This document shows, piece after piece, positions 21,768-25,322 of a stretch of 64,000 nucleotides of DNA. The position numbers and the translations under genes were made by a program. The DNA comes from Phycisphaeraceae bacterium (GTDB lineage: Bacteria > Planctomycetota > Phycisphaerae > Phycisphaerales > Phycisphaeraceae): positions 3,456,001 to 3,520,000 of the forward strand of contig OY771506.1 in assembly GCA_963674705.1 (NCBI GenBank), in the 5' to 3' direction. Positions within the stretch are counted from its first letter, which is position 1. Each line of letters starts with the position of its first letter. Below the pieces are notes generated by a model, which saw only the letters and a list, made by a program, of their open reading frames with translations, did no database searches and was not told where the DNA came from.

Positions 21768-22682
21768 TCAACGAGCCCGTCGTCTGACCAGTACAAACAG
21801 TGATCCGATCGCCGACAGTGCAAACGTCGTCGGCTCGGGACATCCCGTGTAAGCCTCCGGGGTTGCGACGCTCATAAAATCATCAATGTTGGTTTCGCAA
21901 ACGACCTGGCCGACGCCGCCGCCTAATGGCACATCAGCGCCGGATGGATCACCGATGAACACGAACGAGTAATCGGGGTCGGTATAGAAACTGGGTGGTG
22001 TATCGTCGCCGGGCCAGACGCCCATGCTGTAGAAGATGCCTGTCGCATCGGTATCGACATCGGGGCCCTCGAACGTCAGATCGCACGACTTGACCTTGAG
22101 TTGCTCACCCTTAGGCCCGAAGAACTTGTAGCATTTACCCGCTGTACCGGGGATCACACCGCCGGCCGCGGGGACGGGCACCATCGCGCCGCCGCCGCCG
22201 GGACGCACCTGCTGCATCTTCCAATTACCTGTGTTGGGCTTGATCTCCAGATCGTGTGTCTTACTCTTATTCACACGGAAGCGGTAATAGATGACGACCT
22301 GACCGCCGCCGCCACCTCCGCCACCACCCGCATTGGGATTACCACCGGGGCCGATGATCGGATCGATCGGATGTACGGTCGGCGGATCGCCCGGCACCTC
22401 AGGGCTGCAAATCGTCAGTTGAAAACCCGGGTCCAGCCAGACCACATCGGTCCAATCAGGATCGGAACCGACGTTGATAGGTAGCGCGTAGTTATAAATC
22501 GGATCGCCAAACTCATCTTCCTCGTACCAGTTCTGATACGTGGTGCAGTACCGCTGCGCATCCTCGTTCCACTGCCGCGTGACAACATACTTCACATCGT
22601 ACGACGCATTTGCCGTTTGGATCGGCAGGCTGATGATCAAACCAACCAACGCAAGCATCAATCCCTGCAATAACCGTTTCAT
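21768..22682 (-). CDS. PEP-CTERM sorting domain-containing protein (CPEP variant, poly-Gly linker)
   Basis: Signal peptide ending TANA; C-terminal CPEPTTFALSAIGSLFVLVRRRAR. Confidence 0.85.
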   Translation of the reverse strand: MKRLLQGLMLALVGLIISLPIQTANASYDVKYVVTRQWNEDAQRYCTTYQNWYEEDEFGDPIYNYALPINVGSDPDWTDVVWLDPGFQLTICSPEVPGDPPTVHPIDPIIGPGGNPNAGGGGGGGGGQVVIYYRFRVNKSKTHDLEIKPNTGNWKMQQVRPGGGGAMVPVPAAGGVIPGTAGKCYKFFGPKGEQLKVKSCDLTFEGPDVDTDATGIFYSMGVWPGDDTPPSFYTDPDYSFVFIGDPSGADVPLGGGVGQVVCETNIDDFMSVATPEAYTGCPEPTTFALSAIGSLFVLVRRRAR

Positions 22683-23452: not shown

Positions 23453-24262
23453 TCACTTACCCACTTCAACAACCAACCCGTCATACGGCAGCCTCACACC
23501 TTCCGGCAACCGAGGCTCCAACTCCGCATGAGACACATCATGAGCCAGGTGCGTCAGGTACGCACGCTTGGGTTTGATCTGCTCGATCTCGCTAAGCGCC
23601 TGGTCGATCGTGAAGTGGGTCGGGTGATGACGGAAGCGCAGACCGTCGATGATTAACACATCAAGATCCTTGAGTAGCGCATAACTCTCCGGCGGGATCG
23701 ACGACACATCCGTGCAATACCCAAGCGACCTGCCCGCGATATCAATCCGGAAACCGAGTATCGGCAACCGCCCGTGCATCAGCCTGATCGGCGTCCACGT
23801 CGCACCGAACAGGTCCAGCACTTTGTCCGGTTCCAGCAGGTTCGGGATCAGCGTCGGGATGAATGATTTATTGACGTTGTGTTCCGAAGCAAAGATGTAC
23901 GGGAACATATGCCGTAACGATTCAAGCACGCGCTCTTCCGCGTAGATATCGAGCGGCTGTTTCATCACCGCGTTAAACCGACGCAGATCATCAAGCCCGA
24001 AGACATGGTCCGCATGGGCGTGGGTATACAACACGCCGTCGATCCGCTTGAGGTCCTCGCGCAGCGCCTGCTGCCGAAGGTCCGGCGAAGTATCGATCAG
24101 GTACGCTCTGCAGTTGCCGTCCGGATCGTCATACCGGATCAACACGCTCGTGCGGTCACGTTTGTCTCGCGGATCATCCGACCGGCAGACCGCACACTCG
24201 CACCCGATCATCGGTACGCCGGCGCTGGTACCGGTCCCTAAAAATAGAACTTCAAACTTCAT
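23453..24262 (-). CDS. MBL-fold metallo-hydrolase (PhnP-like phosphodiesterase)
   Basis: LGTGTSAGVP..CECAVC, THAHADHVFGLDDLR, YCTD, LTHLAH. Confidence 0.92.
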   Translation of the reverse strand: MKFEVLFLGTGTSAGVPMIGCECAVCRSDDPRDKRDRTSVLIRYDDPDGNCRAYLIDTSPDLRQQALREDLKRIDGVLYTHAHADHVFGLDDLRRFNAVMKQPLDIYAEERVLESLRHMFPYIFASEHNVNKSFIPTLIPNLLEPDKVLDLFGATWTPIRLMHGRLPILGFRIDIAGRSLGYCTDVSSIPPESYALLKDLDVLIIDGLRFRHHPTHFTIDQALSEIEQIKPKRAYLTHLAHDVSHAELEPRLPEGVRLPYDGLVVEVGK

Positions 24263-24300
24263 GGCTCCGATTCTAGGGCAATGGGATGCTCTTGTCCTGA

Positions 24301-24330
24301 TTGACGCAACACGGGCAAGTCGGTTAGGCT
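24301..24330 (+). promoter_or_regulatory. Sigma70-like promoter of leader peptide/methyltransferase
   Basis: TTGACG (24301-24306), 18 bp, TAGGCT (24325-24330); ATG 7 nt after the -10. Confidence 0.55.
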
Positions 24331-24337
24331 ACGCGCC

Positions 24338-24415
24338 ATGAGTCACTACGCCACCCCGGCTAACGGTAATGCCTTCAACCGCTTCTATGCGGCAAGGTAT
24401 CCGCACGCGAGGTAG
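24338..24415 (+). CDS. Putative attenuator leader peptide MSHYATPANGNAFNRFYAARYPHAR
   Basis: 25 codons between promoter and terminator; its 3' end is complementary to the terminator 5' arm/loop. Confidence 0.6.
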   Translation: MSHYATPANGNAFNRFYAARYPHAR

Positions 24416-24449
24416 GCAAACCAGACTTCTATTGACAAAAGTCGAATCG

Positions 24450-24478
24450 GCCCGTCTCGTGTGAGACGGGCTTTTTTT
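24450..24478 (+). terminator. Leader (attenuator) terminator
   Basis: GCCCGTCTC-GTGT-GAGACGGGC plus T7, lying upstream of a same-strand gene with no long ORF before it. Confidence 0.85.
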
Positions 24479-24515
24479 ATTGGGACTTTTTGGATTACTT
24501 TGCAGGAGATATGAC

Positions 24516-25322
24516 ATGGACGCGCGTTGGGAAACAGCCATTCCCTACTACAGCCGATCGGGATTGCACATCGAGGTCTACGACACACTGACCGAGTTCT
24601 GGGCCAACCAGGATATCGGCTTCATGATCGAACAGGCACGCGAAGTAGGCGGCCCGGTATTGGAACTGGCAAGCGGCACCGGCCGAGTCGCCTGGCCGAT
24701 TGCACAGGCGGGATTTGATGTGGTGGGCCTGGATATCAACCCGGGCATGATCGCCGCCGCGGAGGCCAAACGCCCGCAATATCCAAGCGAAGTCAGTGAT
24801 CGCATGCGCTTCGTACACGGCGACATGACAAACTTCGACCTCAAACAGCAGTTCCGCCTGGTGTATATCACGTACCGTTCTTTTATGGCATTGATGACGC
24901 CTGAAGCACAGCAGAAGTGTCTACGCTGTATCCATCAACACCTCGAACCCGGCGGCAGGTTGGTGATCAACCTCTTCGATCCAAGGTTGTCGCGTTGCGA
25001 TGAGCAGATCGAAGACCCGACGGAAGAAATGACGGTAACAAACCCCGTAACCGGCTTGCAGGTCGAGCAACGCGCAGTCGATCGCATCAACGATCCGCTG
25101 AGCCAGTCCTTCAAGATGCTATGGATCATCAGTGAACGCGACGCACAAGGCAACACCGTACGCGAAGAACACGAACGCCTGGACCTCCGCTGGACCTATC
25201 GCTTCGAGATGCGATACCTCCTGGAGTTATGCGGTTTCGAAGTCCTGGCAGAGTTCTCAGACTTCGAAAAGTCCGCACCCGCCTACGGCGAAGAACAGGT
25301 GTGGGTCGCACAAAAGCGTTGA
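24516..25322 (+). CDS. Class I SAM-dependent methyltransferase
   Basis: VLELASGTGR, VVGLDINPGM, GDMTNF, LEPGGRLV; AGGAG RBS at 24504-24508. Confidence 0.92.
   Translation: MDARWETAIPYYSRSGLHIEVYDTLTEFWANQDIGFMIEQAREVGGPVLELASGTGRVAWPIAQAGFDVVGLDINPGMIAAAEAKRPQYPSEVSDRMRFVHGDMTNFDLKQQFRLVYITYRSFMALMTPEAQQKCLRCIHQHLEPGGRLVINLFDPRLSRCDEQIEDPTEEMTVTNPVTGLQVEQRAVDRINDPLSQSFKMLWIISERDAQGNTVREEHERLDLRWTYRFEMRYLLELCGFEVLAEFSDFEKSAPAYGEEQVWVAQKR

Follow-up and report, generated by a model that had tools for sequence, protein, structure and literature searches.

A putative uORF-based transcription attenuator ahead of an orphan methyltransferase gene in a Phycisphaeraceae bacterium

In a Phycisphaeraceae bacterium, a methyltransferase gene is preceded by a short upstream open reading frame (uORF) and a terminator-like hairpin, which raises the question of whether translation of the uORF decides if the gene is transcribed, which signal would be read, and what the enzyme might do. 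We analysed the window (64,000 nucleotides of contig OY771506.1, positions 3,456,001 to 3,520,000) and compared the locus with its counterparts in related genomes. Judged from sequence comparison and folding models, the element is very probably a genuine transcription attenuator. With moderate confidence, we regard it as ribosome-controlled, with a broad translation stress, possibly alanine-weighted, as the trigger and an enzyme that N-methylates an amine.

Layout and distribution of the leader

The locus has the following features (window coordinates):

24301..24330, plus strand: putative sigma70-type promoter TTGACG-N18-TAGGCT (TTGACG box 24301-24306, 18-nt spacer, TAGGCT box 24325-24330), from sequence and homologue comparison
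24338..24415, plus strand: uORF without Shine-Dalgarno (SD) sequence, 25 codons and a TAG stop (24413-24415), with frame, length and stop kept in seven of seven genomes
24340..24428, plus strand: anti-antiterminator rod spanning the whole uORF, predicted by folding
24404..24417, plus strand: antiterminator 5' strand (codons 23-25, stop and 2 further nt), from pairing across homologues
24424..24443, plus strand: small spacer hairpin within the antiterminator loop, predicted, its sequence varying among homologues
24449..24478, plus strand: intrinsic terminator, 10-pair stem and T7 run (24472-24478)
24450-24463, plus strand: antiterminator 3' strand, identical with the terminator 5' arm and loop
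24504..25322, plus strand: ribosome-binding site (RBS) AGGAG (24504-24508) and methyltransferase gene (ATG at 24516; 268 aa, class I SAM)
23453..24298, minus strand: divergent MBL-fold hydrolase, context only, its adjacency not being kept in all homologues

The promoter-like sequence lies where the original prediction had placed it, and its -10 box is kept in all seven genomes with the leader, TTGAC-N18 in five of them. The ATG 7 nt past the -10 box without an SD sequence was likewise described correctly: the SD is absent in all seven genomes, and the box sits 6-9 nt before the uORF ATG in each, from which we infer a transcript start at or just before the ATG, i.e., a leaderless uORF. A consensus promoter scan returned two sites (2.5 expected), and the promoter at 24301-24330 is not among them. 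Leaderless starts appear to be common in the source genome, where, on crude ORF calls, 143 of 1431 long ATG-first ORFs have a -10 box at the leaderless offset versus 76 at a control offset. The MBL hydrolase is probably leaderless too (-10 box TAGAAT 7 nt before its ATG), and back-to-back promoter-like sites in window positions 24262-24330 would serve this gene and the leader. At two homologous loci (L004, L006) the MBL hydrolase and the leader are separated by an additional gene, with the promoter boxes retained; the additional gene of L004 is thioredoxin/AhpC-like and in the same orientation as the leader. The other flank is occupied by a convergent tsaD; a link to it was dropped, because tsaD is not adjacent in two of the genomes (G006, G130). 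Elsewhere in the window, 21768-22682 (minus strand) encodes a 304-aa protein with a signal-peptide-like start and a glycine run, which showed a weak PEP-CTERM match below the cut-off and no other family.

Database entries close to the enzyme carry the names Phycisphaerales, Phycisphaeraceae or Planctomycetota in their titles. Orthologues in five other genomes of the genus are 67-90% identical, and the search upstream of orthologues that the original prediction had proposed recovered the conserved uORF and pairing in seven of seven genomes: six of one genus and one (G130) of another genus, whose enzyme matches a database protein 51% identical to the source enzyme. In a profile search (E<=1e-60) the subfamily was found in seven of 401 genomes of the order, and these are the very genomes that carry the leader. 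A DNA pattern reaching from the stop to the terminator matched eight of 144 family genomes, namely the six, G130 and one (G159) dropped as a chance hit, since it falls within a different reading frame and has neither a methyltransferase nor a terminator; a stricter pattern matched only the source genome (G000) among 401 class genomes. With a covariance model built from the seven leaders, no other full-length copy was found in the 144 family genomes and no second one in the source genome, and the hits in relatives were weak and mostly to the terminator part (E>=2.5e-5). In none of the 144 family genomes was the leader found apart from the methyltransferase gene. Among 79 further homologue loci (one of 80 being too short upstream), 77 have no leader or terminator upstream, so that the enzyme is usually not under the control of the leader; only the two closest have the motif or a terminator, and these may duplicate counted genomes and were not added. 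A metagenome scan yielded only distant methyltransferases (18 loci, none close). The restriction of the leader to the subfamily genomes marks it as a local acquisition tied to the methyltransferase gene. One of the genomes also contains a second, partial methyltransferase C-terminus (G006, contig C292, 20859-20969, minus strand; 81% identity over residues 231-267), which is a remnant or an assembly duplicate.

Exclusive pairings and a modelled ribosome

The terminator had been described as a 9-bp stem followed by seven T residues; the hairpin and the T run are present, but the stem has 10 pairs when the closing G-U is counted (24449-24472; -19.0 kcal/mol). The hairpin occurs in seven of seven genomes, with the U-tract interrupted in two, one being G130. 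The competing pairing between 24404-24412 and 24455-24463 is complementary as proposed, but its true extent is longer: 24404-24417 with 24450-24463, 13 pairs and one A-C mismatch. Across the seven genomes 89 of 91 cells of this antiterminator are paired, versus 24-63% when it is slid. The A-C mismatch at the A of TAG persists in all seven genomes and is the only mismatch kept in all; its confinement to this base points to selection on a translated stop, and a conserved A-C is the expected cost of holding a stop codon within the helix. Of the pairs, four have changes in a single partner and one has changes in both, and the covariation score of the seven leaders does not rise above shuffles (81 of 500 reach it). 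In the source genome the duplex of terminator arm and upstream sequence ranks 53rd among 285 predicted terminators; taken alone, this pairing is not exceptional, and for several parts of the element chance would suffice. The fold of the 186-nt region is more stable than that of each of 200 shuffles (z -3.1), there is no Rfam match within the window, and it is by its conservation among genomes that the element stands above chance.

The unremarkable pairing in a single genome, together with a second TTGACA at 24433-24438, would fit an unregulated leaky terminator or a small RNA, with another promoter driving the gene. This TTGACA is not conserved, no promoter-like sequence is shared between hairpin and RBS, and the mutually exclusive pairing lies at the same place in all seven genomes, which makes such an arrangement highly improbable.

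As the original prediction had it, the uORF has 25 codons and ends at TAG (24413-24415), and its length, frame and stop are identical in the seven genomes, as is the ending GCG-AGR-TAG-G. The peptide is variable and under weak constraint, as far as the sequences tell: uORF pN is 0.16-0.31 versus 0.14-0.19 for the enzyme (six divergent pairs), and peptide pN exceeds enzyme pN in six of seven pairs. Synonymous sites are near-frozen in the closest pair (uORF pS 0.06 versus 0.30 for the enzyme), and a relative differing at 35 of 701 contig sites has one change in the 78 nt of the uORF. Contigs from four sequencing runs yielded sequence variants only.

An RNA structure within the uORF is consistent with these rates. 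The hairpin TGCGG:CCGCA, put forward earlier as the protector of the antiterminator, has the complementarity (-5.7 kcal/mol) but not the role: its probability in ribosome-free RNA is 0.00, its pairs are kept to 5, 5, 2, 5, 3, 4 and 1 of 5 across the seven genomes, and in folding it arises only with a ribosome at about codons 5-13. In the models the antiterminator is protected instead by a rod that extends over the uORF as a whole. The first 92 nt are folded into this single rod, with the start region paired to 24424-24428 at its base and inner helices 24369-24375:24394-24400 and 24379-24382:24389-24392, and 7-12 of the 14 antiterminator bases are paired in it. Against dinucleotide shuffles the rod scores z -1.6 to -4.7 in six genomes and -0.9 in G130; against synonymous recodings (uniform codon choice, not GC-matched) it scores z -2.2 to -4.8 in six of seven and 0.0 in G130. 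The inner hairpin of the rod moves by exactly 3 nt between lineages, and because of this shift in register RNAalifold recovered the terminator alone from all seven leaders; with four leaders free of indels it detected the rod, though weakly.

We then modelled a ribosome that was assumed to cover -14/+15 around its P-site, using an RNA ending just after the terminator loop and equilibrium folding. In this model, with and without blocked codons, the structures predicted for the nascent RNA change with ribosome position. With the P-site at codons 3-13, equilibrium folding gave a mean pairing of the arm with the antiterminator of 0.70-0.98 in all seven genomes, remaining high up to codon 19 in five of them, and at codons 22-26 a mean of at most 0.08, again in all seven. 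For ribosome-free nascent RNA the prediction is ON in four genomes (0.78-0.98) and OFF in three (0.00-0.22). With the full-length RNA of the source genome, equilibrium folding favours the terminator wherever the ribosome stands (<=0.03), so that the decision of the switch would have to be kinetic.

A mechanism may be proposed in which the nascent RNA of the uORF first folds as the rod and so hides its own 3' end. A ribosome at codons 22 to stop would cover the antiterminator strand, and the terminator would form. A ribosome held in codons 3-13, and in five of the seven genomes as far as codon 19, would melt the rod and leave 24404-24417 free to capture the terminator 5' arm, whereupon RNA polymerase would read through; slowed or stalled uORF translation would thus turn the methyltransferase on. 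A ribosome-mediated attenuator with its antiterminator under the last codons and the stop was the core of the original prediction, and both conservation and modelled-ribosome folding support it. The attributes by which such an element can be judged from sequence, i.e., a conserved short uORF that overlaps with a mutually exclusive antiterminator, and an intrinsic terminator ahead of the gene, are all present.

The constraint on the uORF appears to be dominated by RNA (pS 0.06 versus 0.30, the z-scores of the rod, a single change in 78 nt), and this would also be expected if a protein or a ligand such as SAM or SAH bound the rod and the uORF were a by-product. We regard a translation-independent switch of this kind as improbable, since the ATG, the open frame, the fixed length and the TAG are kept in seven of seven genomes, including the A-C that weakens the helix, the inner hairpin moves by exactly 3 nt, the window lacks an Rfam match, and the layout equals that of evident amino-acid attenuators.

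Codon content and the possible signal

These evident attenuators come from the same genomes. A genome-wide scan of the source genome for a leaderless uORF, terminator and gene gave 28 candidates, the best-pairing hits including leuA, the methyltransferase gene and a DAHP-synthase-like gene (aroF; leuA and aroF were named by reading of the protein sequences), and an ileS leader surfaced in the ranking of predicted terminators. The leuA, aroF-like and ileS leaders (G000, contig C1, 2716422 on the plus, 3551583 on the plus and 1451174 on the minus strand; loci L180-L199) have a leaderless start, a TAG stop, a terminator and a stable length like the methyltransferase leader. In relatives (two loci being without upstream DNA) the lengths and the clusters of Leu, aromatic or Ile codons are retained, and for leuA and aroF this extends to G130. 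Attenuators with leaderless uORFs rich in Leu, aromatic residues or Ile seem to represent a lineage-wide design that the methyltransferase leader shares. A fixed length of 25 codons as a "ruler" was dropped for the same reason, the leuA (26-27), aroF (23) and ileS (19-20) leaders being equally length-stable. The source genome also has an array of 30 tRNA genes (C1, about 622400-634800, minus strand); a leader shared with this array was considered and dropped, as its upstream region is laid out differently.

The original prediction had placed a stall at F-N-R-F-Y and named Phe/Tyr limitation or a ribosome-targeting antibiotic as the signal. The motif is not conserved among the seven leaders, and no special stall there is needed, since in folding a P-site anywhere in codons 3-13 frees the antiterminator in all seven. 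Codons 2-19 hold 4, 4, 3, 2, 3, 3 and 0 aromatic codons (1.5 expected) and 3, 3, 2, 3, 4, 3 and 1 Asn codons in the seven genomes. A sensor of Phe/Tyr (or Asn) limitation stalling at F-N-R-F-Y could draw on the codons of the six leaders from one genus, each with 2-4 for aromatic residues and 2-4 for Asn; G130 has no aromatic and one Asn codon, and the genome's own aromatic sensor, the aroF leader, has eight aromatics in nine consecutive codons, which are retained in relatives. The leuA leaders, too, carry 1-3 Asn codons. We consider sensing of any of these amino acids very improbable, and an antibiotic or translation-stress signal the better idea. Sensing through Asn or NAY codons (queuosine) was likewise dropped (absent in G130, not significant), as was an arrest motif AR-stop, the bases of which are fixed by pairing.

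No conserved run of control codons for any one amino acid was found in the seven methyltransferase leaders, and the control-codon cluster of trp/his/leu-type attenuators is therefore missing. Alanine is, however, the commonest or tied-commonest residue in each of the seven uORFs, with 41 of 168 codons (24%) versus 33 of 267 (12%) in 12 parsed control leaders (three aroF leaders were left out by the filter) and 9.2% in the proteome, the seven sequences being kin. In-frame GCN in codons 2-19 totals 33 versus 11.1 in shuffles, again in sequences that are not independent, and the other frames have 0-3 per leader. Codon 8 is Ala in all seven leaders through three different codons, and G130 has four consecutive Ala codons (6-9).

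Such a bias would suit a dedicated Ala-tRNA sensor, in which a sufficiently long ribosome stall arises only when charged tRNA-Ala runs short and the enzyme would contribute to the supply of alanine or detoxify a compound that mimics alanine or inhibits AlaRS. We think this rather unlikely. The six same-genus leaders lack an early alanine run (the longest is 2, and none occurs before codons 18-19), whereas the control codons of aroF and ileS are clustered, and no alanine-pathway gene is a neighbour. Ala codons 8, 18 and 24 fall inside predicted RNA helices, and part of the alanine bias may come from this pairing; leuA leaders contain up to six alanines.

Our preferred reading, a broad translation stress, would be set off by ribosome-targeting drugs and charged-tRNA shortage, with a weighting to alanine codons as in the whiB7 uORF. 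According to the accessible text of one report, a penultimate alanine favours arrest by linezolid (10.1101/2021.08.10.455846). More specifically, the leader might sense antibiotics and the enzyme N-methylate the free amine of compounds that target the ribosome or a tRNA synthetase, amounting to inducible resistance; we put this forward tentatively, as a possibility that is not the likeliest outcome.

The methyltransferase and the comparison with known systems

The enzyme reaches the cut-off of no NCBIfam family; the best is the daptide methyltransferase model NF041820, with 114 bits versus 175. It has 534 relatives at E<=1e-30, and the nearest Atlas cluster has 704 members. Among solved sequences, 9SOT is the closest (E 5e-40); this is CorZ, which according to the accessible text methylates the N-terminus of the RiPP myxarylin (PMC12951456). 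The structure model (pLDDT 93.8) matches CcbJ, CypM, YunM, CalS10, MtfA, PsmD, TylM1 and DesVI (TM 0.6-0.8, 16-24% identity); most of these listed matches N-methylate amines of small molecules or peptides, two are C-methyltransferases, and none is an rRNA methyltransferase. The model thus suggests a class I SAM methyltransferase of the CcbJ/CypM/MtfA/CorZ amine N-methyltransferase fold; by analogy, the amine that it may N-methylate would belong to a small molecule or peptide, plausibly a translation inhibitor. A Pfam scan of 130 neighbouring ORFs at 37 homologue loci revealed no widely recurrent partner, apart from purine genes that a few loci from Chloroflexota have in common, and a stand-alone, patchy gene under stall control would fit a detoxifying or stress role.

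Because the closest solved relatives, CorZ and CypM, methylate the N-termini of RiPPs, the 25-residue peptide itself might be a RiPP-like substrate N-methylated by the enzyme, the terminator setting a high ratio of peptide to enzyme. This is the least probable of the explanations that we weighed. The peptide changes faster than the enzyme in most pairs and its N-terminal residues differ, the window contains no adjacent co-oriented P450, protease or transporter, the peptide is not conserved as a precursor would be, and the 37 loci show no recurrent neighbours that could be maturases; the daptide model falls short, and the antiterminator would be left unexplained.

Ribosome-mediated attenuation is a principle decades old, and the classical trp/his/leu/ilv attenuators have a three-state geometry. 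The planctomycete leader shares this geometry; unlike them, it has no codon run for a single amino acid, and its gene encodes neither a biosynthetic enzyme nor a synthetase. What is new would be the target gene, the mechanism being a classical one. The genes of CcbJ, CypM, MtfA and TylM1 sit in biosynthetic clusters. In overall architecture and class I SAM fold our enzyme resembles CorZ/BytZ, CcbJ, CypM, MtfA and TylM1, but the gene stands alone, whereas CorZ, in the accessible text, sits in a biosynthetic cluster (PMC12951456). In the mostly open-access literature that was covered, PMC4833913 included, we found no attenuator for such a methyltransferase class and no paper on transcription attenuation in Phycisphaerae. 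Since stall-sensing attenuators mark translation-stress genes, the leader offers a functional lead for an orphan methyltransferase family. The interest of the locus lies mainly in this handle, and also in the leaderless-uORF design shared with aroF, leuA and ileS; if the antibiotic reading were true, the enzyme would be the first member of a widespread, uncharacterised family that inactivates such compounds, amounting to inducible resistance in planctomycetes found via an RNA switch.

Among drug-responsive systems, as far as the accessible parts of the sources describe them, the bmrCD, vmlR, tlrB and ytbDE attenuators of Bacillus subtilis are induced by drug-stalled ribosomes, and bmrCD and vmlR use the same logic of anti-antiterminator, antiterminator and terminator; their targets are efflux, ABCF and the rRNA methyltransferase TlrB, with no small-molecule N-methyltransferase among those described, and vmlR and tlrB add SD sequestration (PMC13689557). 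The toiL leader of E. coli senses five drug classes via stalls at different positions, comparable to the many positions that would be effective here, but it frees an RBS and involves Rho-dependent termination (PMC12121999). Mycobacterial polycysteine sORFs are leaderless regulatory uORFs like ours, but act by freeing the ribosome-binding site, where our leader has an intrinsic terminator and antiterminator (10.1101/834739). A close counterpart in design is mycobacterial whiB7 (wblC), again from partial texts: its uORF is variable yet alanine-enriched, as are the seven leaders (which are not independent sequences), and lies over a terminator/antiterminator; many starvations induce it, and loss of the uORF start codon raises expression (PMC10274678). 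Translation of this uORF decides between terminator and antiterminator under translation stress and amino-acid shortage (PMC10274678; 10.1101/2025.10.10.681568). The likeness considered here is one of design, and there are differences: whiB7 encodes a transcription factor and is preceded by a uORF of variable length, whereas the planctomycete uORF has a fixed 25 codons, is predicted to be leaderless and precedes a single enzyme.
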